IMG/VR virus record: IMGVR_UViG_3300030117_005808
Coordinates: 1 to 64,000 of that record
Origin: a virus
Reading direction: 5' to 3' (one strand)
Length of the DNA stretch: 64,000 nt
In this document: positions 6,974-29,828 of the stretch, piece after piece
Numbering within the stretch: position 1 is the first letter of the stretch
How the letters are laid out: each line of letters opens with the position of its first letter
The notes under the pieces: generated by a model
Databases searched by the model: none
What the model was told of the DNA's origin: nothing
The model's input: the letters and a program-made list of their open reading frames with translations, nothing else
Translations under genes and position numbers: made by a program

Positions 6974-7774
6974 ATGAACCTGACGCAAGATTCATATCCA
7001 TATCTCACTGGAATGGGACTTAGAAATAGGTGTCATATGGTTTTTGATGAGTTTCATAAAGATGAAGCTGACAAAATTAAGCACGATGGACAAGTTATTT
7101 TTATAAAAACTGATTTGGTTCCCATGTTTTTTACACGCATTATGCCAAGAATCAACCGGAGTGTTGTTATAATAACACATAATAGTGCTCTTGGTATTGG
7201 TGAAAGATACAAGAAGTATCTAGATGATCCAAGGGTCATAAAATGGTACGCACAAAATGCAAATTTTAATCACCCAAAGCTGTGTTCGGTGCCTTTGGGT
7301 ATAGCAAATGCGCGTTGGCCACATGGAGATATATCTGAGATTAAAAAAGCTAATGAGGCAAAGAATAAAAAAGATCACTTAGTGTATATGAATTTTGATC
7401 TAAAAACAAATATTACAGAGCGAACAAAAGTGTATGATATGTTTAAGGACAAAGACTATGTTCTAAAGGGTGAAAGAAAACCATTTGGTGAATATTTAAA
7501 GGATCTCGCTAGATGCAAATATACTTTATCACCTCCCGGCGCAGGAATAGATTGTCATCGTATATGGGAATCAGTAGCTGTGGGCACGGTGCCCATAGTT
7601 CAGGATTGTCATAATATTTCCTTTCATAAAGATATGCCAATAATGATCATTGACGACTGGGGCAAGCTGACTGAGGAATATTTATCAAATAAATATGATA
7701 ACTTTACTAGTAATAAATATAGTTCTAGGGCTATAATGATCGATTATTGGTCCAAAAAAATAGGTTTATTATGA
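6974..7774 (+). CDS. Exostosin/GT47-like glycosyltransferase
   Basis: CKYTLSPPGAGIDCHRIWESVAVGTVPIV matches the exostosin-family FCLxPxG...RxxEA..GCIPV pattern. Confidence 0.72.
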   Translation: MNLTQDSYPYLTGMGLRNRCHMVFDEFHKDEADKIKHDGQVIFIKTDLVPMFFTRIMPRINRSVVIITHNSALGIGERYKKYLDDPRVIKWYAQNANFNHPKLCSVPLGIANARWPHGDISEIKKANEAKNKKDHLVYMNFDLKTNITERTKVYDMFKDKDYVLKGERKPFGEYLKDLARCKYTLSPPGAGIDCHRIWESVAVGTVPIVQDCHNISFHKDMPIMIIDDWGKLTEEYLSNKYDNFTSNKYSSRAIMIDYWSKKIGLL

Positions 7775-8493
7775 AAACAGCCATTTGTTTTACGGGTACT
7801 TGCAGAAGCTTACAACACACACACAAAAATATAAAAGAAAAACTCATAGACCCTTTTGGTGAATGCGATGTGTTTATGCTGGTGGCAAAAAATCCAGACT
7901 CTGAAAAGGCAAATACTTATTTTGGAAATCTTCCACAATTGAAGACGTTGTTAGTAGAGGATGAACCAGAATATGATGTGAGTAAACTTAACTTTAAGCC
8001 TAACTGGCCCTCTGGTAAACTTAGTTCTAAACAAGTATATATTAAGATGATTGAGTCAAGAAAACGCTGTGATGAAGTGTTATCTCTCTATGAGGAGAAA
8101 AGCGACATGACTTACGACAGGGTTATCTTTTCGCGCTTGGATGTTAAATATTTTAACAATGTTTCTAAAATTATAGCTGATCTACCGTTATCTAATCTCT
8201 ATGTGCCTGATTTTCACAATAGCTTTGGTGGAGTGATTGATGGATATAATGATAGATTTGCTGTTTCTGATAGAAAAAATATGAAAACGTATTTTAAAAT
8301 TCCTGATAGCATCGCAGATTTCCAGAGTGCTGGAGGAGAGCTTCACGCGGAAACGCTTTTAAAATGGCACCTCACTAAGAGTAGGGTGCCAGTTGATCAG
8401 GTGCCAGTTAGGTTTACTAGGGTAAGACCCTCGGGCAAAGAAATGGATCTTAGAATAGAAAGTCAAATTAACTGGTCTTTGGGGGATACATAA
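7771..8493 (+). CDS. Glycan-cluster protein of the 'KxAxCxxGxxR' type (probable transferase)
   Basis: MKTAICFTGTCR...YDRVIFSRLDV...GYNDRFA...ETLL; ATGA overlap with upstream gene. Confidence 0.55.
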   Translation: MKTAICFTGTCRSLQHTHKNIKEKLIDPFGECDVFMLVAKNPDSEKANTYFGNLPQLKTLLVEDEPEYDVSKLNFKPNWPSGKLSSKQVYIKMIESRKRCDEVLSLYEEKSDMTYDRVIFSRLDVKYFNNVSKIIADLPLSNLYVPDFHNSFGGVIDGYNDRFAVSDRKNMKTYFKIPDSIADFQSAGGELHAETLLKWHLTKSRVPVDQVPVRFTRVRPSGKEMDLRIESQINWSLGDT

Positions 8494-9152: not shown

Positions 9153-9988
9153 AGTATCTAGTATTAGGTTCAGAGGGTCAAATAGGATATGCCCTAAAAG
9201 ATTTCTTATTAGATAAAGGACATGAGGTTCTTGAGTATGATATTGTTAGGTCTAAATATGAAGATTTACGATTAACAAACAATACATTGCTTGAAAAGAA
9301 AATTTATGATTGCGATTTTGTATTTTTTCTAGCATTTGATGTTGGGGGTTCAAGATATCTAAAAAAATATCAAAACACTTTTGATTTTTTACACAACAAT
9401 ATATCGCTTATGAAAGAGACCTTTGCCCTTTTGAAAAAACACAATAAGAAATTTATATTTGCATCCAGTCAGATGTCTAACATGGATTATTCTCCATACG
9501 GGCTGTGCAAATCAATAGGAGAGAGGTATACAGAATGTTTAAATGGAATAGTGGTTAAGTTTTGGAACGTATATGGTTATGAGAGGGATCTAGAGAAAGC
9601 ACACGTTATCACGGATTTTATATTGAAATCTCTACAAAATAAGAAAATAAGTATGTTAACCAATGGCTCAGAACAGCGACAATTTTTGAATGCTACTGAC
9701 TGTAGTAACGCCTTGTATATCCTAAGTAAAAAATATAATCAGTTGCCAAGAGAAAAACAGTATCACATAACAAGCTTTGAGTGGATTAATATTAAGAAAA
9801 TTGCGGACATTATTTCAAATTTAACGGGAGACACGCCAGTAATACCATCAAATGAGGTAGATACGCTACAAAAGAATAGGAGAAACCAGCCTGATCCACA
9901 TATATTAAAATACTGGACACCTAAGATTACAATTGAGTCTGGAATAAAACAGATAATACAAAAAATTTTACAAGAGAATAAACTATGA
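9149..9988 (+). CDS. NAD-dependent epimerase/dehydratase (extended SDR)
   Basis: GSEGQIG Rossmann motif, ASS, YGLCK (YxxxK), NVYG. Confidence 0.88.
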   Translation: MKYLVLGSEGQIGYALKDFLLDKGHEVLEYDIVRSKYEDLRLTNNTLLEKKIYDCDFVFFLAFDVGGSRYLKKYQNTFDFLHNNISLMKETFALLKKHNKKFIFASSQMSNMDYSPYGLCKSIGERYTECLNGIVVKFWNVYGYERDLEKAHVITDFILKSLQNKKISMLTNGSEQRQFLNATDCSNALYILSKKYNQLPREKQYHITSFEWINIKKIADIISNLTGDTPVIPSNEVDTLQKNRRNQPDPHILKYWTPKITIESGIKQIIQKILQENKL

Positions 9989-10722
9989 TAAATATAGAGA
10001 TAGGAGAAAACTTAAAAAACCTAACAGAAAATAAGCGCGTTGCATTAGTTGGCCCTGCTCCTTATCTTATAGACTCAAATGTAGGTGAGCAACTAGATCA
10101 ATATGACTTGATTTGTAGAGTTAATGATTTGATTCCTCCAGAACATCTTAGAAAAGACTATGGTTCACGAACAGATATCATGTTTCACAACTTGGGAACT
10201 CCGTGGATCGCCGGCTTAGAAAGAAAGACTGTTCAGCACCCAGAGCATTTTAAAAATCTTAAAATGGTTGTGTGTCCCGTAATAAAATCTGATCACTCTG
10301 AACTAAGTTATTTAAACTGGCAAGACCACTATGTCAGTAATGTAGTTAACAATTTTGATAAAATAAATAAGCATGACATACCGTTTAATTGGATCGGGGT
10401 CAAAGAATATAAGAAAGTATACAATGATGTCGGAGTTGAATTTAACTCGGGCCTCGGCGCCATGATAATGCTTTGCAACTGCCCGGTTAAGGAACTTCTA
10501 ATAACAGGTTTTACATTTTATTTGGGTGGTTCAACACACGATGAATTATATTATGATGGACACTGGGATAAACAAAACTTGGCTAAAACAACGGTTGGAT
10601 TATCTGGAGGCCACGGCTATAATGCCAACATGGCACAGATTGGATATTTTCGAAATATGGTGTCCGAACCACCAAAAGTGGTTCTTATAGATTCTTATAT
10701 GAAACAACTTTTTAAATTATAG
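9985..10722 (+). CDS. GT29-like (sialyltransferase-like) nonulosonate transferase
   Basis: VALVGPAPYL...GEQLDQYDLICRVN resembles sialylmotif L; NSGLGAMIMLC...ELLITGFTFY resembles sialylmotif S; adjacent to cytidylyltransferase and NeuB. Confidence 0.72.
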   Translation: MINIEIGENLKNLTENKRVALVGPAPYLIDSNVGEQLDQYDLICRVNDLIPPEHLRKDYGSRTDIMFHNLGTPWIAGLERKTVQHPEHFKNLKMVVCPVIKSDHSELSYLNWQDHYVSNVVNNFDKINKHDIPFNWIGVKEYKKVYNDVGVEFNSGLGAMIMLCNCPVKELLITGFTFYLGGSTHDELYYDGHWDKQNLAKTTVGLSGGHGYNANMAQIGYFRNMVSEPPKVVLIDSYMKQLFKL

Positions 10723-10729
10723 TTTTTTC

Positions 10730-10758
10730 TTGCCTTTTTAAAAATAGTGTGTTATAAT
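10730..10758 (+). promoter_or_regulatory. Sigma70 promoter with extended -10
   Basis: TTGCCT (10730-10735), 17 bp, TGn-TATAAT (10753-10758), in the only sizeable intergenic gap of the island. Confidence 0.8.
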
Positions 10759-10781
10759 AATAACAAAGATTAGGATGTTCT

Positions 10782-11525
10782 GTGAAGGCAATATTTATCT
10801 CTGTTAGGCTAGGCTCAACTAGACTTCCTAAGAAAGCAATCTTAGATCTGTGTGGTGAACCATCCATACAGTATTTGATTAAAAACTTGAAATCTTCAAG
10901 GCATGCCGACAAGATAATTTTATGCACAACATTAAAATCTGAAGATGATGTTTTATGTGAACTAGCCGAAAAGAATGGAATCGAATTCTTTAGAGGATCT
11001 ACGGATGATAAGCTGTCAAGATGGCTTGGCGCATGTAAGAAAAATAACATTGAATTTTTTGTTAATGTTGACGGGGACGACCTATTTTTTGATACACCTC
11101 TAGCAGATTTATGTTTAGGCCAGAGCACAGGCATTGATTTTGTTGATGGTAGAGGCTTATATAACGATGTGTATGGTATTCGTACAACTGCCCTTGAGCT
11201 AGTGTGTAAACTAAAGAGTGCCAGCGACACAGAGTTTATCAGGCCTCATTTTATTGATCCCGTGAAAAAATTCAATATCAACAAGGTGCAGAATGTTCCT
11301 AACAAATATAAGAAAAGAAACATCAGAATGACATTAGACTACGTTGAAGATCACAAATTTTTTGAAACAGTGTTAAAACATTTTAAACAATTAAACGTAG
11401 CACCCACTTTCGACAAAATCTTGCAGTTCTTACAAAATAACCCAGAAGTGGTTAAAATAAACTGGTTTCGCGAAGAAGAGTGGAAAAACAATCAAAATAA
11501 AATGATAAATCGAGTGGTTTTATGA
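10782..11525 (+). CDS. Cytidylyltransferase (SpsF/KdsB/NeuA family; CMP-ulosonate synthetase-like)
   Basis: VRLGSTRLPKK, FRGS, NVDGDD, RMTLDYVED; GTG start with AGGA RBS. Confidence 0.85.
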   Translation: MKAIFISVRLGSTRLPKKAILDLCGEPSIQYLIKNLKSSRHADKIILCTTLKSEDDVLCELAEKNGIEFFRGSTDDKLSRWLGACKKNNIEFFVNVDGDDLFFDTPLADLCLGQSTGIDFVDGRGLYNDVYGIRTTALELVCKLKSASDTEFIRPHFIDPVKKFNINKVQNVPNKYKKRNIRMTLDYVEDHKFFETVLKHFKQLNVAPTFDKILQFLQNNPEVVKINWFREEEWKNNQNKMINRVVL

Positions 11526-12739
11526 GTAATCCCGGTAAATACCTTAACAACGAAATTAAATATCTAAAAAAAGTATTAGACTCGGAGTGTTGGTCGTCTA
11601 CAGCAGGGTCATGGTGTCAGGCTTTAGAGGAAAAGTTCGCAGAGAAATTTGAGTGTAATTACGCAGTTGCTATGAACTCTGGCACGTCAACTTTGCACGC
11701 CGCGCTAGAAGCTGTGGGCGTCGGGGCTGGTGATGAAGTTATATCACCTGCTTTAACTGTCATTATGGATACGACGGCCACTCTCCATGCAAACGCCATA
11801 CCAGTGTATGCGGACATCGACCCACACACGTTTAATATTGATCCGGATGATATTGAAAGAAAAATAACTGATAAAACAAAAGCAATTATTGCTGTATCTT
11901 TGTATGGCTTGCCATGCGATATGGATAGAATTATGAACATTGCAAACAAGCATGGCATAGCTGTCATTGAAGATAACGCACAGTGTTTCTTATCAACTTA
12001 CAAGGGCAAGCTTGCTGGCACCATGGGCCATGTTTCAAGCTGGAGTTTTGAAAATTCAAAACACATGAGTTGTGGCGAGGGCGGAATCATCACTACCAAT
12101 GATGAAAGATACGCCCAACTGGCTAGGAAAGTAGCAGGGCATGGATATAAAAATTTAGGAGCCAGTTATGGACAGATAAAGTTAAATCAAAGTGTGTATC
12201 AGAATCCAAATTATAAAAGACATGATTCTGTTGGATGGAATTATCGTATGCCCGAGTTTAATGCAGCTATCGCCCTAGCACAACTAGAGGAGCTTGATCA
12301 AAAAGTCGATTTACGAGTCCAAGCAGCATCAGAATTCCTAGACGTTGTATCAGGGTGCGATTACATTACACCACAACAAGTACCAAATGGATATGTGCAT
12401 TCATATTTTACACTTGGTTTACTTTATGAAGGTGCAGAGAAAATAGGAATATCTTGGGAAGATTTTAGAGAAAAGTATATTAGTTTTGGTGGCGATGGTT
12501 TTTATGGTGCGTGGAGTGTACCCTACCTAGAACCAGTGATGACTAGCAGAGCTTATGTAAAGAGATACCCCGAGATATATGAAAAGACATTATATCCACA
12601 AGGTATTTGTCCGGTTGCTGAAGCTATACAGCCAAAGTTGATGCAGTTTAAAACAAATTATAGAGACATTAAGTTGGCTCAACAAAAGGCTGATGCCTTG
12701 AGAAAAACAATAGAATTTTATGGAGAAAAAAATGAGTAG
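11522..12739 (+). CDS. DegT/DnrJ/EryC1/StrS PLP-dependent sugar aminotransferase
   Basis: NSGTSTLH, IEDNAQ, SFENSKHMSCGEGG (PLP Lys), GWNYRM. Confidence 0.93.
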   Translation: MSNPGKYLNNEIKYLKKVLDSECWSSTAGSWCQALEEKFAEKFECNYAVAMNSGTSTLHAALEAVGVGAGDEVISPALTVIMDTTATLHANAIPVYADIDPHTFNIDPDDIERKITDKTKAIIAVSLYGLPCDMDRIMNIANKHGIAVIEDNAQCFLSTYKGKLAGTMGHVSSWSFENSKHMSCGEGGIITTNDERYAQLARKVAGHGYKNLGASYGQIKLNQSVYQNPNYKRHDSVGWNYRMPEFNAAIALAQLEELDQKVDLRVQAASEFLDVVSGCDYITPQQVPNGYVHSYFTLGLLYEGAEKIGISWEDFREKYISFGGDGFYGAWSVPYLEPVMTSRAYVKRYPEIYEKTLYPQGICPVAEAIQPKLMQFKTNYRDIKLAQQKADALRKTIEFYGEKNE

Positions 12740-13565
12740 TATTTATATTATTGCAGAGATTGGAATTAATCACAATGGTGATCTAGGTTTAGCGAAGAAA
12801 CTGATTGAACAATCCAAGCACTCTGGTGCTGATGCTGTTAAGTTTCAAAAGAGGACCATTGATTTGGTATACACTCCCGAAGAGTTAGATAAGTACAGAG
12901 AGTCGCCGTGGGGTACTACTAACAGGCAGCAGAAAGAGGGACTAGAGTTCTCGATGGAACAGTACAAAGCGTTGGAAAAATACACTAAAGACCTTGGTAT
13001 GGATTTTATCGTTTCATGCTGGGATACAAATAGTGTAGACGTTGTGGAGCAGCACTTGGATATTAAGTATCACAAGGTCGCCTCTGCCTTGGCAACGGAC
13101 AAGGCATTTTTAAAAAAGCTAAATGACACAGGTCGTCCAGTTATCTTGTCAACAGGTATGTGTACCACAGAAGAAATTAATGCTGCTATCCAAACACTTA
13201 ATAACGTTGAGATTGTGTTAGCTTGCACAAGCACATACCCTACCAAACCAGAAGAGGTTAACTTGAGGCATATAGATACCTTGAGAAAAGAGTATCCAGA
13301 TCTAAAGATCGGTTTCTCTAATCATTATAATGGTCTGGATGCATGTGTTGGCTCTGTAGCTGTTGGGGCAGAGTGCGTAGAGTTTCATATTACTAACGAT
13401 AGAGCTTCTTACGGTTCCGATCAGGCGGCGTCAATTGAAGATTCCCACTCTTTGATTCAGGCTATTAGAAATATGGAGTTAATGCTCGGAGACGGACAGA
13501 AAATGGTTTATGATTCTGAAGTCCCAATTATTAATAAGCTACGGAAAGTGAATGATATCGTCTAA
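12732..13565 (+). CDS. neuB: NeuB-family nonulosonic acid synthase, lacking the C-terminal SAF domain
   Basis: IIAEIGINHNGD, AVKFQKR, KVAS, ILSTGM, CTSTYP, GFSNH, EFHIT, GSDQAAS; ends shortly after the TIM barrel. Confidence 0.92.
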   Translation: MSSIYIIAEIGINHNGDLGLAKKLIEQSKHSGADAVKFQKRTIDLVYTPEELDKYRESPWGTTNRQQKEGLEFSMEQYKALEKYTKDLGMDFIVSCWDTNSVDVVEQHLDIKYHKVASALATDKAFLKKLNDTGRPVILSTGMCTTEEINAAIQTLNNVEIVLACTSTYPTKPEEVNLRHIDTLRKEYPDLKIGFSNHYNGLDACVGSVAVGAECVEFHITNDRASYGSDQAASIEDSHSLIQAIRNMELMLGDGQKMVYDSEVPIINKLRKVNDIV

Positions 13566-14262
13566 TAAGAGGGTGCTTGTTACTGGTGCTTCACGCGGCC
13601 TCGGAGCAAGCATAGCCAAAGAATATGCTAGGATAGGCTATGACGTTATCCTAGTGGGTCGCTCCGAGGAAGACTTAAATAAACTCAAAGAGCAACTTCG
13701 TGGATACGAGGTTGATGTTCAAATAAAAGTTTGTGATCTTTTAAACTCGGCAGAAATCCTGTTAATGACCGACTCACTTAGTGACACTAACGTTGATATT
13801 CTCGTCAACTGCGCCGGAGTCTTTCCAGTTAAAAAACTAACTGATATGTCTATGGAGGAATACGACAGATGCATGAATATAAACGTAAGAGCACCTTTTT
13901 TGCTGACAAGAGAGCTATCAAAGAATATGGTAAAAAATAAATGGGGTCAAATCATTAATGTGGCATCCTCGTCAGCTTATGGGGGTTCACCTTTAACTTC
14001 CGTCTATTGTGCCTCCAAACATGCTTTACTTGGCCTTTCTAGGTCTTTATATAAAGAGCTTAAAGCTGATAACATAAGAGTCATGTGTGTCTCACCCGGC
14101 TCAATAAAGACAAATATGGGCAAAAAAGTAGAGGCCCTTGGCCAATTGTATGATACGTTCATGGAACCTGATGAGGTAGCTCAATATATTGTGTTTAACT
14201 CTTCATGGGACGGCGCCATGGTGAACGAGGAGCTAAGATTAAACAGGATCGTAGTTCAATGA
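13552..14262 (+). CDS. Short-chain dehydrogenase/reductase
   Basis: TGASRGLG, NCAG, YCASK. Confidence 0.92.
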   Translation: MISSNKRVLVTGASRGLGASIAKEYARIGYDVILVGRSEEDLNKLKEQLRGYEVDVQIKVCDLLNSAEILLMTDSLSDTNVDILVNCAGVFPVKKLTDMSMEEYDRCMNINVRAPFLLTRELSKNMVKNKWGQIINVASSSAYGGSPLTSVYCASKHALLGLSRSLYKELKADNIRVMCVSPGSIKTNMGKKVEALGQLYDTFMEPDEVAQYIVFNSSWDGAMVNEELRLNRIVVQ

Positions 14263-15038
14263 TGTTAGGGTTGATGCAAGGAAGGCTTTTGCCCCCTGTG
14301 GACGGCCATATTCAAGAGTTCCCAAATCAGTGGCAAGATGAATTTGATATATTAAGCGAGTGTGGATTGTGTTGTGTTGAGTGGCTAATAACAACAAATA
14401 GCTTAACTTTCAATCCGGCCGTCAAATCACCAAGTATGCTTGCTGGCCTACCCATATCCTCAGTGTGCGTGGACACTTTAGTTGACGAAAGAATCAATGA
14501 TCCAAAATATTTGTACTCAAACCTTGTTTCCTTATGTTCTTTAATTACAAGACATCATTTTACAAAAGTTATTACGATTCCGCTGCTAGAAGATAGCAGC
14601 ATGCAAGACCAAACTAAAAGAATGGCGTTTATAAAAAACATTGCCGACATTGCAGATATGTTTCCAAATATCAATTTTTCATTTGAAGCCGAGCTAGGTA
14701 TTAAAGAACTGGAAGAGATCGTATCTTTACGAGATAACTTTTTAGTAACATATGATACAGGAAACATTACGTCGTTTGGTCTAGACCATGCGGAATACAT
14801 AAGAGCATTTTCAAATAAAATAAACAATGTGCATTTAAAAGACAGAACTTTTGGTGCAAAAACAGTCGAACCGGGCCATGGAGATACAGATTTTAAGAAG
14901 ATTTTTGACACTTTAAAAGATATAAATTATAGTGGACCTTTTATTTTACAGACCGCTAGGTCAGCTTCAGGCAAAGAAAAAGAGACTATTTTAAGACATA
15001 TACAGTATTTTGGGGGCCTATATGAAGGGGATATTTGA
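14259..15038 (+). CDS. Sugar-phosphate isomerase/epimerase (xylose isomerase-like TIM barrel)
   Basis: GLMQGRL, FEAE, YDTGN, VHLKD, PGHGD metal-binding pattern. Confidence 0.82.
   Translation: MMLGLMQGRLLPPVDGHIQEFPNQWQDEFDILSECGLCCVEWLITTNSLTFNPAVKSPSMLAGLPISSVCVDTLVDERINDPKYLYSNLVSLCSLITRHHFTKVITIPLLEDSSMQDQTKRMAFIKNIADIADMFPNINFSFEAELGIKELEEIVSLRDNFLVTYDTGNITSFGLDHAEYIRAFSNKINNVHLKDRTFGAKTVEPGHGDTDFKKIFDTLKDINYSGPFILQTARSASGKEKETILRHIQYFGGLYEGDI
14905..14933 (+). promoter_or_regulatory. Intragenic sigma70 promoter
   Basis: TTGACA (14905-14910), 17 bp, TATAGT (14928-14933); ~90 nt before next gene. Confidence 0.6.
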
Positions 15039-15753
15039 TCTTACAGGCAAGACCGCTGTAATCACTGGCGGCGCCGGTCTGTTAGGCCGTAAACACGCCG
15101 AGGCTATCAAGTCTGCGGGCGGCTCTGTTGTATTAACAGACATCGTAGACGATCCTGATTGCGTATATATGGATGTTACAGACAAAGCCAGCATAGAAAA
15201 GGTAGCTAGCAGCATCGAGCGCGTGGACATTTTAATAAACAACGCAGCTTTGAATCCCAAAATGGTGGAAAAAGGAGATAATAATTTTGAAACTTTTTCT
15301 CTTGAGAGATGGAACCAAGGGATCAACGTAAACCTAACAGGCGCATTTTTATGCAGCCAAGTATTCATCAACAAGATGGTTCAGCAAGGATCTACAGGAG
15401 TGGTTATTAACGTTGCATCGGACCTTGGAGTCATAGCCCCAGATCAAAGAATCTACGACGGAGATGTTAAGCCAGTGGATTATAGTGTGACAAAACATGG
15501 TATTATAGGTTTAACAAAATATTTGTCAACATATTATGCTGACAAAGGAATAAGAGTTAATAGTCTAAGTCCAGCCGGCGTTTATACCAATCAGGATCCT
15601 GAGTTTGTAAAAAGACTATCTAATCTCATTCCAATGGGCAGGATGGCTAATATTCGTGATTATATGGGGGCCATAATATTTTTGTGCTCCAACGCTAGCT
15701 CCTATATGACTGGAACAAATTTGATTATCGATGGAGGTAGAACAACATGGTAG
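15022..15753 (+). CDS. SDR oxidoreductase, PtmA (flagellin modification)-like
   Basis: TGGAGLLG, NNAA, YSVTKHGIIGLTKY, RVNSLSPAG, IPMGRMA. Confidence 0.85.
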   Translation: MKGIFDLTGKTAVITGGAGLLGRKHAEAIKSAGGSVVLTDIVDDPDCVYMDVTDKASIEKVASSIERVDILINNAALNPKMVEKGDNNFETFSLERWNQGINVNLTGAFLCSQVFINKMVQQGSTGVVINVASDLGVIAPDQRIYDGDVKPVDYSVTKHGIIGLTKYLSTYYADKGIRVNSLSPAGVYTNQDPEFVKRLSNLIPMGRMANIRDYMGAIIFLCSNASSYMTGTNLIIDGGRTTW

Positions 15754-16409
15754 ATAGAACACTATTAGAAAATATGGACTTGCCAGATTTGTCAGACGCG
15801 ATTGATGTGTACACAAGACACGCTAGATTTTGCCAGCCAACTCCTGAAAATAGTCATTTGTCTTTGTTATATAAGATCAGAGAACTGCACGATAAGGAGT
15901 GCAACTACCTTGAAATAGGTACTTTGTTCGGATTTAGCATGGTAAATGCCAGTCGAAGCTCTACTAAGGGTAAGTTTGTAGGCATTGATCTTTTTGAAAC
16001 CACAGGTAAAATATATGTTAACGACTACACACCTGACATAAGAGACAGAAACCTATCTATTGGCAAAACAACAAGATTAGTTGAAACTTGTAATATTCAC
16101 AATCATGATATTGAGTTGATTCTTGGTAACTCTACTTTAGACACTACATACGATAGAGCAGTTAATATTTGTTCAAACTATCATTTAATGTTTATAGATG
16201 GTGACCACTCCTATGAGGGAACCCTAAGAGATTTTCTTAAATACACACCTCTTCTAGAGTCAGGTGGGTATCTTTTACTTGACGATCAGGATTATCCTGA
16301 TATTGAAGCTGTTATTAAAACTATAAGAACAGACTTCAAAGACGAGTATGAGTGGGTTCCATGGCCAGAATATGCGCCAAAATTTAATGGCTTTTTTATA
16401 AAAAAATGA
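15747..16409 (+). CDS. Class I SAM-dependent methyltransferase (Methyltransf_24-like)
   Basis: LEIGTLFGFS, FIDGDHSYEG, GGYLLLDD. Confidence 0.85.
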   Translation: MVDRTLLENMDLPDLSDAIDVYTRHARFCQPTPENSHLSLLYKIRELHDKECNYLEIGTLFGFSMVNASRSSTKGKFVGIDLFETTGKIYVNDYTPDIRDRNLSIGKTTRLVETCNIHNHDIELILGNSTLDTTYDRAVNICSNYHLMFIDGDHSYEGTLRDFLKYTPLLESGGYLLLDDQDYPDIEAVIKTIRTDFKDEYEWVPWPEYAPKFNGFFIKK

Positions 16410-17347
16410 GTTCCAAAGTAGTTTTTACAGGTCTGTATAGGCACAATCATGGCATCACCAATTTATCGCTAGCAGATAGGATAAATCTAATCAGAGACAA
16501 TGGTATTGATGAGATTTATTGGTATGTATGGGAAGGCTATGTAGACCCAGAGGTGGCTAACCAAGATATAAACATCGTCGAGATCCCAGAGCCATTCCCA
16601 CACACTAGAGGGGTTATGGGTCGCCAAAGGCAAATATTTAACTTTAAAAAGTGCTTGTCTGATTTTAAAGACGATGATATAATCTTAAAGCTAAGGTGGG
16701 ACCTAGATTTTAATAAGAAGCTAATACAAAATATTAAAGATCCTAGTTTTTTTGACAAGGTAGAAAACGGGGTATTAGGCAATAAAATATGGACAGGATT
16801 TTATAGTATTAGGGAATTATTCAGCCCAGCAGATTTGACATTTGCAGGATTTAAGAGAGATTTGGATAAGGCAATAAATTTTGATTACAAGATAGATGGA
16901 GAGCCAGCTAACAATTATATAAGTCACGATGGAATGATGCTTATGCCTTTCTTGTTATCTCAAAACAAAGAAGTGTGCAGTTTAATCAAGGCAGAAAAGC
17001 CAGATCCAGATGGATTGTCTTATGAAAGACACTTTGAGAATATTGATCAATATTGTGATGCTTGGGCTTACTCATATTTTCTTTTTTATAAATACTTCAA
17101 AACTGGCCCTATTGGGACTTGCTTTTTTAAGAGAGGCGACCTCGCTCGCTGGCCGCACTCTATAGTTGATTACAATAGGTTTTTGCACAACTACGACACC
17201 ATGGTAGGAAGAGCACCAAAATTAGGAATGTACTCTAGGTATAGGGTTTATGATGATTATTTTGTGTCTAGCTTGGTTAAAGGTAATTACAATGATCCGT
17301 TCGCAAATAAGATCTCAAAGATAATAAATAAGAAATATTTAAAATGA
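16406..17347 (+). CDS. Hypothetical glycan-cluster protein (weakly WavE-like)
   Basis: RQIFN...ILKLRWDL resembles the KxRxD motif of WavE-like proteins; context. Confidence 0.4.
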   Translation: MSSKVVFTGLYRHNHGITNLSLADRINLIRDNGIDEIYWYVWEGYVDPEVANQDINIVEIPEPFPHTRGVMGRQRQIFNFKKCLSDFKDDDIILKLRWDLDFNKKLIQNIKDPSFFDKVENGVLGNKIWTGFYSIRELFSPADLTFAGFKRDLDKAINFDYKIDGEPANNYISHDGMMLMPFLLSQNKEVCSLIKAEKPDPDGLSYERHFENIDQYCDAWAYSYFLFYKYFKTGPIGTCFFKRGDLARWPHSIVDYNRFLHNYDTMVGRAPKLGMYSRYRVYDDYFVSSLVKGNYNDPFANKISKIINKKYLK

Positions 17348-18504
17348 AGAATCTTTTGGTTACAATGTCTGGTGGTACCACATCAGTGATAAACGCAACT
17401 CTAGCTGGTATTATCCATCAAGCCCAGAAATCTAAAGACATAGATAAGGTGTACGCTGGGTTTCCGGGTATTCTTGGATTTATGGAGGATAACTTACTTG
17501 ACTTAACGAATACAACCCCAGACGAGTTGGAGATAATAAAACTAAGCCCCGGATCTGCATCCATCGGGACTACTAGAACAAAAATTTTCAATGCGAAAGA
17601 TGCTGACGAACTCAGGCGCTGTTTTAAAAAGCATAATATAGAATATTTTGTAAACATTGGCGGTAATGGGACAATCAAGCAGACCAAAGCAATAGCCTCT
17701 TTTATTTCTGATGTGAAAATGGCTGCTGTTCCAAAAACTGTTGATAATGATTTGGGTGACGCTGAATTTGAGGATTTATGGTTTACACCGGGATTTCCAA
17801 GCTGTGTTAACTTTTGGTATCACAAAATGCATATGCTTGACAATGAAAGTCGAGGGGCACACTCTCACGATAGAATTTTAGTAGCACAAACATTCGGCCG
17901 CGAAACGGGCTTTATTGTAGGCGCCATGAGGATGTTTGATCCAGACCGATCTCTTCCGATTGTACTGTTGATACCAGAAGATCAACAGCCTTTAGACAAA
18001 GTAATGTCCCATATAGATAATACTCTTAGTAAACACAATAGGGCCATAGTTGGCATATGCGAAGGCTACAATATTAAAAAATATAACTATGAGTATGATT
18101 TAACCGGACAAAGAATGTATGGTAGTAGTCATTCAACTGCTGCACAGGAGATGGTTAACGCATGCATCAAGAATAACATGCAAGCAAGAGGTTATAATCC
18201 CACTTTTGATCAAAGACAAAATTTTAACTATACTCTTGACAACGACGTACAAATAAGTTATGATATAGGTGAAGAGGTAATAAAAAACCTTATATCTGGG
18301 GAGAGTCATTTCTTTCAATCATTCTCCACGAATGGAACTCATATGATTCCTTTGGATGAAATTGGTAACTATTCTCGTGTTTTGAAAGAAGAGTGGATTA
18401 GGCGTGGCGAATTTGATGTGTCTGATAAATACATCGACTATTTATCTGAGTTTACACCAATATCTCCAAGAAGAAAACTTTTTTCGTCCGGACAAATTCT
18501 GTGA
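17344..18504 (+). CDS. PfkA-family sugar kinase (divergent 6-phosphofructokinase)
   Basis: SGGTTSVINA, GTTR, IGGNGT, PKTVDND, QTFGRETG (MGR changed to FGR), CEG. Confidence 0.85.
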   Translation: MKNLLVTMSGGTTSVINATLAGIIHQAQKSKDIDKVYAGFPGILGFMEDNLLDLTNTTPDELEIIKLSPGSASIGTTRTKIFNAKDADELRRCFKKHNIEYFVNIGGNGTIKQTKAIASFISDVKMAAVPKTVDNDLGDAEFEDLWFTPGFPSCVNFWYHKMHMLDNESRGAHSHDRILVAQTFGRETGFIVGAMRMFDPDRSLPIVLLIPEDQQPLDKVMSHIDNTLSKHNRAIVGICEGYNIKKYNYEYDLTGQRMYGSSHSTAAQEMVNACIKNNMQARGYNPTFDQRQNFNYTLDNDVQISYDIGEEVIKNLISGESHFFQSFSTNGTHMIPLDEIGNYSRVLKEEWIRRGEFDVSDKYIDYLSEFTPISPRRKLFSSGQIL

Positions 18505-19196
18505 ATACTAAAGAACTTAATGTTGTAGTGCTGGCATATACCCGTCCAGATACATTTGCAAGAGTTATAAAAGCATGTGAGAAGAACTTACACAGTGTGA
18601 AGGTCATGATGGATTTCCCAGAGAATGATCTTGTATCAAAGAAACAAGAAGAAATTGTGGATATCATAAACAATTTAAGTATCGATTGCACTCTGACTAG
18701 AAGAGCAGAAAATTATGGCCTTGTTCGCTCTGTACTCACGACGATTGAGGATGAGTTGCAATTGCACGACCACGTTGTGCTACTTGAAGATGATTGTATG
18801 CCAGATGAGAAGTTTTTTAGTTTTGTTAGCAACTCACTAAAACATTATAAAGATGACCCGAGTGTGTCTTCGATATGTGGTACCGTGAGCAAGTGTAGAT
18901 TTAATCCGTGGGGATGGGCCACATGGTCTCACAAATGGAAATACGAAACCCTCTCAAAAAAGCAAATACTAGATATTTTAGATTTAGATCCAAGTTTAAG
19001 AGATTTTCTAGAAAACAATAATGTGGAGCATTCGATATGGTCCCTAAATTGGCTGGCTAGTCAATATAAAAACGGCACCGTTGCTCACATGCCGCAGAAC
19101 ACTTTAGTACAAAACATAGGGGTAGATGAATCTGGTGTTCACTCCCCAAAAAAAGGCTATACAAGTTGGTTACTTTCCCAAATCAAGGAAAAATAG
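18501..19196 (+). CDS. GT-A glycosyltransferase (GT2-like)
   Basis: LAYTRP, VLLEDDC, WGWATW, VQNIG. Confidence 0.8.
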   Translation: MNTKELNVVVLAYTRPDTFARVIKACEKNLHSVKVMMDFPENDLVSKKQEEIVDIINNLSIDCTLTRRAENYGLVRSVLTTIEDELQLHDHVVLLEDDCMPDEKFFSFVSNSLKHYKDDPSVSSICGTVSKCRFNPWGWATWSHKWKYETLSKKQILDILDLDPSLRDFLENNNVEHSIWSLNWLASQYKNGTVAHMPQNTLVQNIGVDESGVHSPKKGYTSWLLSQIKEK

Positions 19197-19861
19197 AAAG
19201 ATTAGAGTTGCATGGACAAATGTGCATGTTAGATACTACCAATAAAGAAGTGGTGGTTGTACTATTATCTGGGTGTTTTACTCTAGGGGACAAAAAGTTT
19301 TCTAGAGTAAATGTTTTTAGTGATCCTGCAAATGGCTTTATAGCTTCAAATCAAGGTGTCTTAGAGATAAATGTTGAACAAATGGCTGAGATATGTATCA
19401 TAGAGAGTAAATCAAGTACACCAATACCGCTTCAAATAATAGAAAAGACTAAGGTAAGAACAGTTGGGAGCGATAATTTTATGAGAGATGTGTTCACGTT
19501 GGTTGATAATGATAATGGTTTACAAGGCTTGATTGTTGGAGAAACGTTTAAGAAACCCGGCAACTGGTCTAGTTGGCCTCCACATAAGCACGATACTTAC
19601 CAAGAGGATACAGAATCCGAACAACAAGAAGTTTATTTATATAAGTTTGAAAAATCAAACGGCTATGGCTTACAAATGATCTATGAGGGTGACATCTCCG
19701 ACGCTAATGTGGAGGTAGTAACAAATAATCAAGAAGTAAAAATACAGAGAGGTTACCACCCAGTGGTGGCCAGCCCTAGTTCAGGCATGTATTATTTATG
19801 GGCTTTATTTGGGAGTAACAAAATGTTCAAGACATCCGATGATCCGAGGTTTTCAAAATGA
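19166..19861 (+). CDS. iolB: IolB/KduI-family cupin isomerase (5-deoxyglucuronate isomerase-like); start uncertain
   Basis: LIVGET...GNWSSWPPHKHD...EVYLY...GYHPVVA...YYLW. Confidence 0.8.
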   Translation: MVTFPNQGKIERLELHGQMCMLDTTNKEVVVVLLSGCFTLGDKKFSRVNVFSDPANGFIASNQGVLEINVEQMAEICIIESKSSTPIPLQIIEKTKVRTVGSDNFMRDVFTLVDNDNGLQGLIVGETFKKPGNWSSWPPHKHDTYQEDTESEQQEVYLYKFEKSNGYGLQMIYEGDISDANVEVVTNNQEVKIQRGYHPVVASPSSGMYYLWALFGSNKMFKTSDDPRFSK

Positions 19862-20601
19862 ACTGGGTTTTTCCGATAGCTGGCCATGGCACCAGAACTT
19901 CTATGTTTGGAGAATATAAACCTCAAATTGAAGTTTATCCTAATTATAGTATTCTAAAGTTATGTTTAATGGGATTAAAAAGTCTTATTAAGGAAACAGA
20001 CACTTTAGTTTTTGCTGCGTCAAAACAACAGGAGGAGGAATATTCAGTCACTCATAATATTAAAAAAGTATTAAAAGAGTTAAATTTAAACAATAATGTG
20101 CATATGGCCATTCTGGAACAGACTCCACCCGGTCAAGCCTTAACGGTAAAAAAAGCAGTGCAATCCTTGTGTGATAGTCACAAGAAAGATGGGACGTTTA
20201 TCATAAATTCAGATCAGGTTGTTTTCTTTGATATTGAAAGTATAGATAAAGATTACAATTCTGTTGGCTTATATTTTAATGATGGCACCTCTTCTTGTTT
20301 CTACGATCTAGATTTTTATAACAAACGAGTGACAAATATTAAAGAGAAAGAGAAGATAAGTTGTTATGCATCAGCCGGCGTGTTTTTCTTTACAAGTGGA
20401 AAACAAGTACTGGAGTGTATAGAATGGGGACAAAAAGAACAAAAACTATACAATAATGAATTGTACTTGGGTCCTTGTATGGAATATTTTAAAGAAATCA
20501 AATATTTTAAAACAATGATCAAATTTGATTTAGGTAATGAAAATAGCCTAAACTTGTTTAAGAAATTTACAAAACAAATACTGATAGAGGAAAAAAGATG
20601 A
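19858..20601 (+). CDS. Sugar-1-phosphate nucleotidyltransferase-like protein
   Basis: PIAGHGTR...KP, GQALT, INSD, IKEKEKIS, ELYL, DLG. Confidence 0.78.
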   Translation: MNWVFPIAGHGTRTSMFGEYKPQIEVYPNYSILKLCLMGLKSLIKETDTLVFAASKQQEEEYSVTHNIKKVLKELNLNNNVHMAILEQTPPGQALTVKKAVQSLCDSHKKDGTFIINSDQVVFFDIESIDKDYNSVGLYFNDGTSSCFYDLDFYNKRVTNIKEKEKISCYASAGVFFFTSGKQVLECIEWGQKEQKLYNNELYLGPCMEYFKEIKYFKTMIKFDLGNENSLNLFKKFTKQILIEEKR

Positions 20602-26611: not shown

Positions 26612-26612
26612 T

Positions 26613-27940: not shown

Positions 27941-27944
27941 CTGT

Positions 27945-29818: not shown

Positions 29819-29828
29819 AGGAGATACG

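Follow-up and report, generated by a model that had tools for sequence, protein, structure and literature searches.

A modular gene cassette of a marine T4-like phage predicted to make, tailor and transfer a sialic-acid-like sugar

Bacterial glycosyltransferases of family GT29 were described in 2018 (PMC5811610), and the family is thus not purely of the eukaryote type, as a sequence-only reading of the present locus had taken it to be. NeuB synthases of the SAF-less type are also already known from the literature; Arg314 of Neisseria meningitidis NeuB sits in the domain that this clade is missing (PMC8208679). Leptospira has a NeuB-phosphatase fusion (PMC3438082), and P. parvum produces Kdn-9-P but has no phosphatase homologue that could be recognised (PMC6200933). 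ElaC, a CMP-8-keto-legionaminate reductase, was solved with 6UH2 as the molecular-replacement search model (PMC13656337). CMP-activated ulosonic acids of more than nine carbons have been observed in Magnetospirillum, with the gene cluster unassigned (bioRxiv 10.64898/2026.04.20.719630). No paper on the phage module analyzed here was found in the literature.

The window is a stretch of 64,000 nucleotides from an uncultured, marine, T4-like phage, and belongs to a contig of 106 kb that is 46% complete; the host may supply steps missing from it. Positions 9985-15753 hold an operon of seven tightly packed ORFs on the + strand with start/stop overlaps of 4-29 nt, in the order GT29-like transferase, CMP-sugar synthetase, DegT aminotransferase, NeuB, SDR1, TIM barrel and SDR2 (Table 1). 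The sequence-only reading had listed the same seven genes; their ORF coordinates and Pfam families were borne out, and the key cofactor and catalytic motifs look intact. The genes are syntenic in the independent IMG/VR contigs L001 and L002/L003, SDR1 being absent from L001, and occur rearranged in L006, L008/L009 and L011; the gene order is thus not a matter of chance. We put slightly above an even chance the reading that this is a modular phage cassette for synthesizing, activating, tailoring and transferring an ulosonic (sialic-acid-like) sugar, with a chemistry that we infer to comprise phosphosugar (Kdn-like) condensation, oxidation, epimerisation, transamination, reduction and GT29-type transfer.

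Table 1. Positions and best-matching models of the cassette genes and of other sugar-island genes.
Feature	Position	Strand	Model match
DUF7796 protein	7747-8493	+	Pfam PF25072, 43.6 bits
NAD-dependent epimerase/reductase-like extended SDR, 279 aa	9149-9988	+	Pfam Epimerase, 79 bits
GT29-like (sialyltransferase-fold) glycosyltransferase, 245 aa	9985-10722	+	Pfam PF00777 Glyco_transf_29, 30.3 bits
Divergent CMP-ulosonic acid synthetase	10782-11525	+	Pfam PF02348 CTP_transf_3, 54 bits
DegT/DnrJ/EryC1-family PLP aminotransferase	11522-12739	+	Pfam PF01041 DegT_DnrJ_EryC1, 268 bits
SAF-less NeuB-family PEP:sugar condensing enzyme, 281 aa	12720-13565	+	Pfam PF03102 NeuB, 213.6 bits, full model
SDR1, classical SDR (FabG-like)	13552-14262	+	Pfam adh_short, 174.7 bits
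Metal-dependent xylose-isomerase-like TIM barrel	14259-15038 (start most likely; revised from 14205)	+	Pfam PF01261 AP_endonuc_2, 49 bits
SDR2, PtmA/ElaC-like SDR	15010-15753	+	Pfam adh_short_C2, 132.5 bits
Methyltransf_24 (CmcI/rhamnosyl O-methyltransferase-like) protein	15747-16409	+	Pfam PF13578, 48.5 bits
GDP-mannose 4,6-dehydratase-family gene	26601-27590		Gmd 375 bits; LegB 95 bits (cut-off 475)
GDP-mannose 4,6-dehydratase-family gene	28811-29818		Gmd 471 bits; LegB 104 bits (cut-off 475)

The first gene encodes a small relative of animal sialyltransferases that appears to be soluble and whose sequence shows no hydrophobic anchor at the N terminus. The Pfam match (gathering cut-off 23) covers residues 16-104, which correspond to sialylmotif L and align with ST3Gal1 and ST6Gal1; a motif S-like NSG...TGF, a motif III-like YYD and a late GGHG histidine can be seen by eye. 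For its AlphaFold2 model (pLDDT 93.8) the top Foldseek matches were all GT29. VIA-align gave Z scores of 12.3-14.3 against GT29 over 180-204 residues (Z 14 to ST6Gal1 and ST3Gal1), with GT42 second at about 10-11 and then a sharp fall, so the GT29 fold supposed from sequence was found in the predicted structure. The predicted donor is a CMP-activated acidic sugar. Fourteen loci have a GT29 with at least 38% identity, and a short NeuB is present in 9 of them; in four of the other five (L004, L007, L010 and L013) it is missing because the contig ends there, leaving L014 as a real exception. Together with a natural NeuB-SAF-GT29 fusion protein (P0247), this co-occurrence suggests that the transferase and NeuB are functionally coupled. 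Phage GT29-like genes that are more divergent (25-33% identity) adjoin Gmd and an SDR and lack NeuB, so the fold alone does not fix the donor.

In the NeuB-family protein no SAF domain was found with Pfam, and it differs from canonical NeuB in being without the substrate-recognition domain; its catalytic and metal residues align with those of N. meningitidis NeuB. Among NCBIfam models it scored 238.8 bits with TIGR03569 and 170.2 bits with PseI, both below cut-off. The comparison with the known NeuB clades that the sequence-only reading had called for was made with FastTree on the best 150 representatives and a few references, which are PGAP-labelled and include no biochemically characterised NeuB, LegI, PseI or Kdn-9-P synthase. 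The phage protein falls in a SAF-less clade (119 of 158 tree rows, support 98) that is distinct from the SAF-bearing references (LegI, PseI and NeuB), and relatives occur on at least 588 IMG/VR contigs. In bacteria, members of the clade are neighbours or fusion partners of HAD phosphatases, CMP-transferases and, in one case, a GT29 domain. HAD phosphatase fusions are seen in close relatives (P0201, P0192 and P0204), and HAD genes adjoin NeuB relatives on Methylomagnum and Azospirillum plasmids. This link to phosphatases in bacteria fits a start from a phosphosugar in the KDN-like manner proposed from sequence. In the phage island itself, searches with KdsC-type and Hydrolase_3 models in this contig and four others (G000-G003 and G005) yielded nothing, and a HAD-IIIA homologue was present in only 3 of 80 NeuB-centred viral loci.

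The putative CMP-ulosonic acid synthetase has an R..S.RLP.K motif at its N terminus. Its best NCBIfam models are KdsB subfamilies, followed by PseF, all far below cut-off; in the PDB its best match is the 'cytidylyltransferase' 6oew (89 bits), KdsB structures scoring no more than 26 bits. The adjacent DegT protein, with the PLP-lysine motif SF..SK (K180), scored 212.7 bits with the LegC-family model (cut-off 420) and 197 bits with PseC. It is predicted to aminate a pathway intermediate that bears a keto (or aldehyde) group. Orthologues 49-61% identical are found at this position in L001, L002 and L007-L010, and in L006 and L011 a class III aminotransferase directly after the CMP-transferase replaces it.

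SDR1, a candidate oxidase or reductase in tailoring, has intact TGxxxGxG and YxxxK motifs and is the least conserved cassette member, with a 50% identical orthologue in L002/L003. The TIM barrel gene most likely begins at the ATG given in Table 1, since this forms an ATGA overlap with the SDR1 stop, homologues are 257-259 aa long, and the extension in the longer ORF is of low pLDDT (below 50 for its first 16 residues; 92.3 for the AlphaFold2 model overall). The best PDB structure match is the L-xylulose-5-P 3-epimerase UlaE (TM 0.76), followed by ketose 3-epimerases, YcjR, IolE and IolI. Residues E161, D184 and H210 are invariant in homologues and E258 nearly so (longer-ORF numbering); the metal site of UlaE is an E-D-H-E tetrad. 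YcjR acts together with the GFO-family dehydrogenase YcjS. From sequence this protein had been taken for an isomerase of the sugar used by NeuB; instead of an aldose-ketose isomerase, the modelled structure resembles keto-sugar epimerases, which work next to a carbonyl. SDR2 is a candidate ketoreductase on a CMP-linked sugar. Its best NCBIfam model is NF006619 (155.7 bits, cut-off 255), which we take to be the PtmA-type flagellin-modification SDR model, and its best PDB match is 6uh2 at 139 bits, the next being at 98. Since SDR2 is closest to the search model for ElaC, the suggestion of tailoring as for 8-epi-legionaminic acid fits. The cassette of L008 encodes a GFO/IDH/MocA enzyme of the ElaA/PtmF type.

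If these enzymes act on one sugar, the SAF-less NeuB would join PEP to an aldose that is common in the host, most probably a phosphorylated one such as mannose-6-phosphate, giving a Kdn-9-P-like acid from which a host or other phosphatase would remove the phosphate. The divergent CTP_transf_3 enzyme would form the CMP-sugar. A dehydrogenase (SDR1, or the GFO/IDH/MocA enzyme in the sister cassette) would turn one hydroxyl into a ketone, the UlaE/YcjR-like metal TIM barrel would epimerise the neighbouring carbon, and DegT would convert a keto group to an amine, with stereospecific keto reduction by SDR2. From CMP activation to reduction no order is fixed, and the positions modified and the carbon number are left free. 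The GT29-like enzyme would then move the finished CMP-sugar onto an acceptor glycan or protein, which could belong to the phage's own particle or to the host envelope. Such a route would bypass the usual bacterial starting enzymes. The earlier proposal of a KDN-like or novel acid, tailored and transferred by GT29, gains support from the GT29 fold, the non-canonical gene set, the SAF-less clade and the likeness of SDR2, but the identity of the sugar, the order of steps and the substrate of the aminotransferase are inference.

It is rather unlikely that NeuB, the CMP-synthetase and GT29 alone make an untailored sugar such as Kdn, the other four genes being interleaved from other nucleotide-sugar branches, for example GDP-perosamine or other 6-deoxyhexoses made via two Gmd genes. 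DegT could serve a GDP-sugar branch, since its PDB neighbours include perosamine synthases (besides 2-deoxy-scyllo-inosose aminotransferases and the Kdo8N transaminase KdnA, 5k8b) and since the sugar island, of about 30 kb, holds a true Gmd, a Gmd-like gene and Fcl-like genes at 26601-30677. The pairing of distant GT29-like genes with Gmd points the same way. The cassette is also modular, with TIM in only 22 of the 80 viral loci, GT29 in only 11 and SDR1 in a minority, so that some of the seven genes may act on other sugars. However, DegT is flanked by the CMP-synthetase and NeuB here, in L001 and in L002/L003, each stop overlapping the next start; where another aminotransferase class takes its place, TIM and SDR2 follow in L006. 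SDR2, whose nearest solved relative is tied to a CMP-nonulosonate ketoreductase, accompanies a short NeuB in 44 of the 80 loci. In Methylomagnum, the immediate neighbours of the short NeuB and HAD are an SDR2 homologue (43% identical) and an aminotransferase, and the 25 kb viewed around them carry no annotated Gmd.

Also unlikely is a canonical Leg, Pse or Neu pathway whose late genes alone (for a LegC-like aminotransferase, synthase, CMP-synthetase and PtmA-like SDR) are on the phage, the dehydratase, acetyltransferase and hydrolysing 2-epimerase coming from the host or from the half of the phage genome beyond this contig. The incompleteness of the contig would allow this, PtmA-like SDRs and CTP_transf_3 enzymes are regular in Leg clusters, and the best NCBIfam models are the LegC family for DegT and NeuB_NnaB, which presumably covers LegI too, for NeuB. 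Nevertheless, none of the four scores comes near its equivalog cut-off, the NeuB lies outside the LegI and PseI references and lacks the Arg314-bearing domain, and TIM and SDR1 are left unexplained. Models for PF02350 (the NeuC/LegG family), PseG and hexapeptide acetyltransferases found nothing in this contig (G000) or in relatives that are 84% (G001) and 94% (G002) complete, and tblastn with reference proteins found NeuC/LegG, LegH/NeuD and PtmE in none of the 80 loci (±10 kb). The reported lack of a recognisable NeuC/PseG/LegG-type hydrolase and N-acetyltransferase therefore holds well beyond the window, and canonical Pse/Leg genes completing the pathway elsewhere were not found in the contig or these relatives. 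The claim that PseB/LegB dehydratases are lacking stands in that none scores as LegB, but two Gmd-family dehydratases are in the island. In this contig, the near-complete relatives and the 80 viral loci, the donor pathway is thus without canonical NeuC/LegG/PseG, PseB/LegB and N-acetyltransferase genes. A plasmid of Azospirillum thermophilum has a full LegB/LegC/NeuC/acetyltransferase/PtmE/LegF/PtmA/NeuB cluster and, next to it but separate, a module of short NeuB, HAD, SDR-SDR-TIM-SDR and CMP-transferase, which is a partial counterpart of the phage cassette (SDR, matching SDR2, 48% and TIM 29% identical); we count this separation as suggesting independence from Leg.

Very unlikely is a product other than C9, with NeuB joining PEP to the phosphate of a pentose, heptose or other sugar and so forming an ulosonic acid of 8 carbons (Kdo-like) or of 10 or more: the missing substrate-recognition domain, the KdsB-type models of the CMP-synthetase, a split transketolase in the homologous Methylomagnum cluster that could build unusual sugar phosphates, the long acids of Magnetospirillum, and the radical SAM and methyltransferase genes would suit it, but neither transketolase nor heptose genes are present in the window, NeuB/NnaB models score better than those of DAHP/Kdo8P-type synthases in HMM searches, and to our knowledge CMP-nonulosonates are the donors of the GT29 and GT42 enzymes characterised to date.

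Among the flanking genes, the extended SDR directly upstream of GT29 overlaps it by 4 nt, has a weak likeness to GDP-fucose synthase and probably belongs to a neighbouring NDP-sugar branch; homologues 50-52% identical immediately precede GT29 in L001, L004, L005, L007-L010 and L012. DUF7796 homologues are found just upstream of this pair in the same contigs and in L002. The methyltransferase following SDR2 possibly O-methylates the sugar. Its membership of the cassette is uncertain; an orthologue 60% identical lies between NeuB and SDR2 in L008/L009. Radical SAM and methyltransferase genes occur both in the island and in its Azospirillum counterpart.

The seven genes that the sequence-only reading had placed at 9985-15753 were all found there, and ORF analysis together with Pfam and NCBIfam searches agreed with the identity given to each. 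They form a cassette of about 5.8 kb in which adjoining genes have stop/start overlaps of 4-29 nt, apart from a gap of 59 nt after the GT29-like gene. The start of the TIM-barrel gene is most likely the ATG at 14259, which corrects 14205. Coordinates are collected in the table below.

Genes of the cassette, of the predicted GDP-sugar branch and of the baseplate block, with window positions
Feature	Position	Remarks
GT29-like transferase	9985-10722	Pfam GT29 above gathering score
CTP_transf_3 cytidylyltransferase	10782-11525	R..S.RLP.K motif kept
DegT aminotransferase	11522-12739	SF..SK lysine kept
NeuB, complete barrel, 281 aa, without SAF domain	12720-13565	His/Glu metal ligands kept
Classical SDR (SDR1)	13552-14262	Gly-rich loop and YxxxK kept
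Xylose-isomerase-like TIM barrel	14205-15038 by ORF; likely start ATG 14259	Conserved Glu/Asp/His/Glu positions
SDR2	15010-15753	Best NCBIfam model NF006619; Gly-rich loop and YxxxK kept
Second Gmd-like gene	26601-27590	375 bits, below cut-off
Fcl-like reductase	27945-28859	
True Gmd	28811-29818	471 bits, cut-off 415
GalE-like epimerase	29790-30677	
Short nucleotide-sugar dehydrogenase, 280 aa	30674-31516	
gp25 baseplate wedge protein	42531-42980	
gp6-like wedge subunit	43035-44831	Among very large structural proteins

The match of the 9985 protein to PF00777 (30.3 bits; gathering score 23; E 3.5e-07) covers only residues 16-104, the part that contains motif L, and is also present in most homologues of this 245-aa GT29-like family. 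An AlphaFold (AF2) model was built from 33 homologues (pLDDT 93.8, pTM 0.92) and compared with the PDB using Foldseek; the top matches were all GT29 enzymes (ST8Sia3, ST3Gal1, ST6Gal1 and ST6GalNAc2), followed by the GT42 enzymes CstII and CstI. With VIA-align, GT29 structures gave Z scores of 12.3-14.3 over 180-204 residues (rmsd 2.7-3.4), the best being 14.3 for ST6Gal1 and 14.2 for ST3Gal1, compared with about 10-11 for GT42 and at most 7 for unrelated folds. Thus, the expectation that this protein folds as GT29 was borne out by the model, in which it is predicted to share the GT-A variant 2 fold of ST3Gal1, ST6Gal1 and ST8Sia3. Sialylmotif L aligned residue by residue to 2wml and 4mps (ST3Gal1 and ST6Gal1). 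By eye, we could also discern an S-like segment (NSGLGAM...TGFTF), a III-like segment (LYYD) and a VS-like His (GGHGYN) that lacks the Glu at +5.

The phage protein therefore resembles the animal enzymes ST3Gal1, ST6Gal1, ST6GalNAc2 and ST8Sia3, as well as the bacterial GT29-like proteins, in its predicted GT-A variant fold and Pfam-detected motif L. The S-, III- and VS-like segments may correspond to those of GT29 sialyltransferases, and the gene lies in a putative CMP-sugar donor context, with adjoining CMP-synthetase and NeuB genes and a natural NeuB-SAF-GT29 fusion (P0247) among the NeuB relatives. Unlike these enzymes, it is phage-encoded and has neither membrane anchor nor stem; its identity to the solved GT29 structures is 14-18%, and the motif VS Glu is not conserved. 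With 245 aa and no membrane anchor visible in the sequence, it appears to be a stripped-down GT29-like form. The description of GT29 as a eukaryote-type family is too narrow: GT29-like proteins of marine proteobacteria were reported in 2018 by Petit et al. (PMC5811610), so the family is not exclusively eukaryotic. More distant phage GT29-like genes (25-33% identity, matching at about 10001-10800) occur in the IMG/VR loci L015-L038, where homologues of window 24299-25850 precede them, a Gmd homologue lies upstream and an SDR downstream, and neither NeuB nor CMP-transferase was found in the surrounding 10 kb. Besides CMP-ulosonic acids, other donors may be served by the phage GT29 fold.

The NeuB protein matches PF03102 with 213.6 bits over model positions 1-241, which is the full-length TIM-barrel domain. 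The motifs EIGINH, K.Q, K..S, STGM, C.S.YP, S.H, E.H and D match those of Neisseria meningitidis NeuB and are invariant in the phage family. No PF08666 match, the SAF domain, was found in the protein, which stops at residue 281; the next gene begins 14 nt before the NeuB stop, and the phage orthologues are all 271-290 aa long. In canonical NeuB, the C-terminal SAF/antifreeze-like domain supplies Arg314 to the active site of the partner subunit, and NeuBs that lack it formed an "environmental" group of unassigned function in a large phylogenetic survey (PMC8208679). The window NeuB scored below the equivalog cut-offs of both TIGR03569 (NeuB/LegI; 238.8 versus 399.65) and TIGR03586 (PseI; 170.2 versus 340.25). 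In a tree of 158 sequences it fell within a clade of 119 (support 98), nearly all SAF-less, that holds all phage copies and the short bacterial copies, with the SAF-bearing references annotated as LegI, PseI or NeuB outside. On the proposed phylogenetic check, the protein is set apart from Neu-, Pse- and Leg-annotated references, all of which are PGAP-labelled plasmid genes rather than characterized synthases. A second short NeuB paralogue, very divergent (27-30% identity) and on a long tree branch, lies beside another SDR in two phage loci (L006:16341-17156 and L011:10711-11427).

The remaining enzymes were compared with systems in which a sugar acid or glycoside is altered late. SDR2 scored 155.7 bits against NF006619, which we take to be a PtmA-type model, below the cut-off of 255. 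Its best PDB match by a wide margin was 6uh2 (139 bits, E 1.3e-39). This structure served as the molecular-replacement search model for ElaC, an SDR that reduces CMP-8-keto-legionaminic acid in ElaABC, the CMP-legionaminic acid 8-epimerization module of Acinetobacter baumannii KL49 and Vibrio vulnificus whose oxidase, ElaA, is a GFO/IDH/MocA protein (PMC13656337). Like ElaABC and the AciE/EpaB SDRs (PMC12053666), the window combines a CTP-transferase with an oxidoreductase pair; the ElaABC pair oxidizes and then re-reduces a hydroxyl of a CMP-linked nonulosonate, and the window pair is the predicted counterpart. Unlike ElaABC, the window has a classical SDR in place of the oxidase, as no GFO/IDH/MocA protein of the ElaA/PtmF type was found in it, adds a TIM-barrel epimerase and an aminotransferase, and has no Leg core pathway to feed the substrate. 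The TIM barrel was at first suspected to be a homologue of Campylobacter jejuni PtmF, an idea that was dropped.

The model of the TIM barrel (pLDDT 92.3) was closest to UlaE, an L-xylulose-5-phosphate 3-epimerase (TM 0.76), followed by ketose 3-epimerases, YcjR (a 3-keto-glucoside 4-epimerase), IolE and IolI, all of which work on the carbon adjacent to a carbonyl. As in the YcjS/YcjR and UlaE systems, the barrel belongs to this subfamily and keeps its Glu/Asp/His/Glu positions, and, as with YcjR and its GFO-family dehydrogenase YcjS, it is coded next to NAD-dependent dehydrogenases, an arrangement consistent with oxidize-then-epimerize logic. These relatives are catabolic enzymes acting on glucosides or pentulose phosphates; the window protein is only about 15-16% identical to them. 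The relatives of DegT handle NDP-ketosugars, inososes and Kdo8N. As predicted for the cassette, the Shewanella Kdo8N route uses oxidation and DegT-family transamination after condensation, and its KdnA (5k8b) gave 150.7 bits with the window DegT; however, KdnA was not the closest match (7b0m, 196.7 bits; perosamine synthases, about 181), and the Shewanella backbone is Kdo, made by KdsA rather than NeuB. The oxidase of that route, KdnB, is an iron-dependent alcohol dehydrogenase and not an SDR. With the CMP-Kdn pathway of Bacteroides thetaiotaomicron (BT1713-BT1715) and P. parvum (PMC6200933), which starts from an ordinary sugar phosphate, the cassette shares a CTP_transf_3 CMP-synthetase and a synthase without a NeuC-type epimerase; unlike that pathway, it adds an aminotransferase, two SDRs and the TIM-barrel epimerase.

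When relatives of GT29 were sought in IMG/VR, 39 loci were found, 14 of them with a GT29 at least 38% identical. A short NeuB is present in nine of these 14; another four end too early for one to appear, two of which still carry the CMP-transferase and DegT. The one real exception has its GT29 domain within a 1008-aa protein. The gene order GT29, CMP-transferase, DegT, NeuB, (SDR1), TIM, SDR2 is repeated in L001 and in L002/L003. In L006 and L011, a class III aminotransferase comes directly after the CMP-transferase, and the next genes encode a methyltransferase and a glyoxalase-fold protein. L008/L009 carry an extra methyltransferase and a GFO/IDH/MocA oxidoreductase; the latter shares 31% identity with the protein that occupies the PtmF position in the Azospirillum Leg cluster. 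At least 588 IMG/VR viral contigs encode a NeuB relative, and close homologues are abundant among public metagenome proteins. A NeuB-centered survey of the best 80 loci from these contigs (+/-10 kb) detected CMP-transferase in more than 50, SDR2 in 44, TIM in 22, class III aminotransferase in 20 and GT29 in 11. Therefore, the cassette is modular, with NeuB, CMP-transferase and SDR2 as its most frequent members and GT29 as one of several alternative transferases. Natural fusions among close NeuB relatives join NeuB-SAF-GT29, NeuB-CTP_transf_3, NeuB-HAD, HAD-NeuB and CTP_transf_3-HAD-NeuB. Multi-domain relatives include P0247 (NeuB-SAF-GT29, 595 aa), P0311 (NeuB-MptE/Maf-like, 941 aa), P0204 (CTP_transf_3-HAD-NeuB, 683 aa) and P0212 (963 aa, with two NeuB stretches, SAF and CTP_transf_3).

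One alternative is that NeuB, the CMP-synthetase and GT29 form a plain module interleaved with other nucleotide-sugar genes, DegT being, for example, a GDP-perosamine synthase that works with the island's Gmd. It can draw on the DegT score against perosamine synthases and on the genes at 26601-31516, which probably constitute a GDP-sugar branch of the island; the recurrent gene order and the frequency of SDR2 beside NeuB bear on the other side, and we consider it unlikely.

Another alternative is a canonical Leg, Pse or Neu pathway whose missing steps come from the host or from unsampled DNA. LegG/NeuC (PF02350) had no match at E<=0.1 in this contig (G000, 46% complete) or in the related phage genomes G001 (84%), G002 (94%), G003, G004 and G005, and tblastn with two reference proteins found NeuC/LegG in none of the best 80 viral NeuB loci. 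PseG (TIGR03590) was not matched in G000-G003, nor hexapeptide acetyltransferase models in this contig, G001 or G002. Likewise, tblastn searches that used canonical Leg proteins from an Azospirillum plasmid found homologues of LegH/NeuD and PtmE in 0/80 loci. For the PseB dehydratase (Polysacc_synt_2, PF02719), there were just weak N-terminal Rossmann cross-hits, in the relatives and in the Gmd and epimerase genes of the window. The best LegB scores in the island, 78-104 bits, fell short of the cut-off of 475, and the genes concerned score as Gmd or GalE-like. Thus, the statement that the canonical dehydratases are lacking stands as regards LegB and PseB, but the island does hold two genes of the GDP-mannose-4,6-dehydratase family; a LegB identity for either was ruled out by their HMM scores, which are those of Gmd. 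Nor were canonical Pse/Leg genes that would complete a standard pathway found elsewhere, in the contig (46% complete), G001, G002 or the 80 loci. The pathway seems to be NeuC-independent here, with the reservations that the genome to which the window belongs is not complete and that some steps can come from hosts. A host-completed canonical pathway is, in our estimate, also unlikely.

Counterparts of the module were found in bacteria, the contexts being taken from a plasmid collection. An Azospirillum thermophilum plasmid carries a complete LegB-LegC-NeuC-acetyltransferase-PtmE-...-LegF-PtmA-...-NeuB cluster and, divergent from it, a short NeuB with a HAD hydrolase; past an IS element, the same module continues with SDR-SDR-TIM barrel-SDR, a methyltransferase, a radical SAM protein and a second cytidylyltransferase. 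The window SDR and TIM barrel are 48% and 29% identical to those of this second module, as against 38% to PtmA of the Leg cluster. On a Methylomagnum plasmid a cytidylyltransferase, a split transketolase, a class III aminotransferase, an SDR2-like SDR, a short NeuB and a HAD-IIIA phosphatase lie in a row. The module therefore occurs in bacteria separately from Leg. The closest bacterial match to NeuB (48%) is on a Hymenobacter plasmid, alone among unrelated genes, and a Nonomuraea record is unannotated. On plasmid p2 of Azospirillum sp. TSA2s (L053, 13455-16548), a TIM barrel of the "sugar phosphate isomerase/epimerase family" is flanked by an acylneuraminate cytidylyltransferase on one side and a class I/II aminotransferase on the other, so that TIM, aminotransferase and CMP-transferase also occur together outside clusters with a SAF-less NeuB.

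In bacteria, a HAD/KdsC-like phosphatase adjoins or is fused to the SAF-less NeuB, and a NeuB-phosphatase fusion is known from Leptospira (PMC3438082). No KdsC-type or Hydrolase_3 phosphatase was found in the island of G000-G003 or G005; in this the phage cassette is like the Kdn-9-P route of P. parvum, which operates without a recognizable phosphatase (PMC6200933). Because SAF-less NeuBs are repeatedly associated with HAD phosphatases, as fusions, as neighbors and in Leptospira, we propose that the substrate is a phosphosugar, which NeuB would condense with PEP, like the synthases of the Kdn-9-P and Neu5Ac-9-P routes. The cytidylyltransferase would then activate the product with CMP, and a dehydrogenase, in the window the classical SDR, would oxidize a hydroxyl. 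The TIM barrel would epimerize next to the resulting carbonyl, DegT would transaminate and/or SDR2 reduce it, and the GT29-like enzyme would carry out the final transfer. Taken together, the associations of SDR2, TIM, DegT and phosphatase suggest the putative order condense, activate, oxidize, epimerize, transaminate and/or reduce, transfer. We consider a product that is not C9 improbable.

Tentatively, then, the cassette may make an uncharacterized amino-ulosonic acid by a late-stage route, in which the SAF-less NeuB joins PEP to a common host sugar phosphate, stereochemistry and amine are set after condensation, and the soluble GT29 attaches the product. It is possible, with similar reserve, that the dehydrogenase, TIM-barrel epimerase, aminotransferase and ketoreductase tailor the free or CMP-linked acid and so replace pre-condensation NDP-hexose chemistry; the acceptor is possibly among the phage's own baseplate or fiber proteins. 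To our knowledge, the known Neu, Leg and Pse pathways all use pre-condensation NDP-hexose chemistry. The parts of the cassette are of known kinds (NeuB family, CMP-synthetase, GT29, ElaC-like and UlaE-like enzymes); we found no paper on their NeuC-independent, post-tailored combination or on its wide occurrence in phages. If the late-stage route is correct, uncultured marine phages very commonly carry a gene set for an unstudied way to sialic-acid-like sugars, a condense-first, tailor-later logic is added to nonulosonic acid chemistry, and the large SAF-less NeuB clade, so far known from phylogeny only, gains a function. It would also be relevant to the ways in which phages change their own or host surfaces and offer a soluble minimal GT29 with tailoring enzymes as glycoengineering tools. 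At about 5.8 kb, the cassette is small enough for a direct test by expression and CMP-sugar mass spectrometry.

The cassette lies on a 106.5 kb IMG/VR viral contig (CheckV completeness 46%), of which the window is the first 64 kb. The phage is a T4-like myophage. The long ORFs at 603-31516 are all on the + strand and nearly all are sugar-metabolic or glycosyltransferase genes, making a glycan island of about 30 kb directly upstream of the baseplate block. The phage is remote from cultured phages: for a 438-aa protein that is encoded beyond the window amid the structural genes, identity to Microcystis and Flavobacterium myophage proteins is just 30-31%, and the matches from Flavobacterium are annotated "putative head completion protein". 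Among 50,697 GenBank phage records, blastn with the region gave one partial match (67%), to an unannotated single-cell marine virus, and none with the baseplate block; tblastn gave three matches for NeuB and no GT29-like gene, so that no cultured relative is at hand. A PHROGs search with GT29, NeuB and TIM had no match. Scanning a species-representative genome collection with one sequence found a single locus (L047; JAYPLH010000030.1, 14 kb). On this phage-like short contig of a Neomarinimicrobiota MAG, a weak GT29-like match accompanies a short NeuB that shares 63-64% identity with that of the window; either a phage contig was binned wrongly or the MAG hints at the host.

Several other island genes deserve mention. 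The 230-aa protein at 603-1295 has a sub-threshold match to PF07737, the anthrax lethal factor N/C domain (18.1 bits, cut-off 27.4, E 0.0023), too weak to interpret; its homologues are found before the island in L020 and L032-L034. Directly after the cassette, 16406-20601 encodes a WavE-like protein, for which the sole lead is from the ESM Atlas (score 0.97), and a kinase of the PfkA family that is nearest to PPi-dependent PFKs, although its 211.7 bits stay under the cut-off of 273. An IolB/KduI cupin isomerase (140.7 bits) also lies there, together with weak matches to a GT2 and an NTP-transferase. The trio of WavE-like protein, PFK and NTP-transferase, kept after SDR2 in L001 only and with PFK in 1/80 NeuB loci, may be a separate kinase-to-nucleotidyltransferase branch of sugar activation. 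The 202-aa ORF at 25242-25850 aligns with DegT aminotransferases over their middle portion only (62 bits); six further phage loci conserve it at 66-69% identity, so this short form is stable and not a fresh fragment. A radical SAM gene also lies inside the island at 21443-22657 (PF04055, 80 bits; best NCBIfam models maturase- and viperin-like, all below cut-off), and the A. thermophilum module also has one, next to a cytidylyltransferase (L050:23214-24701).
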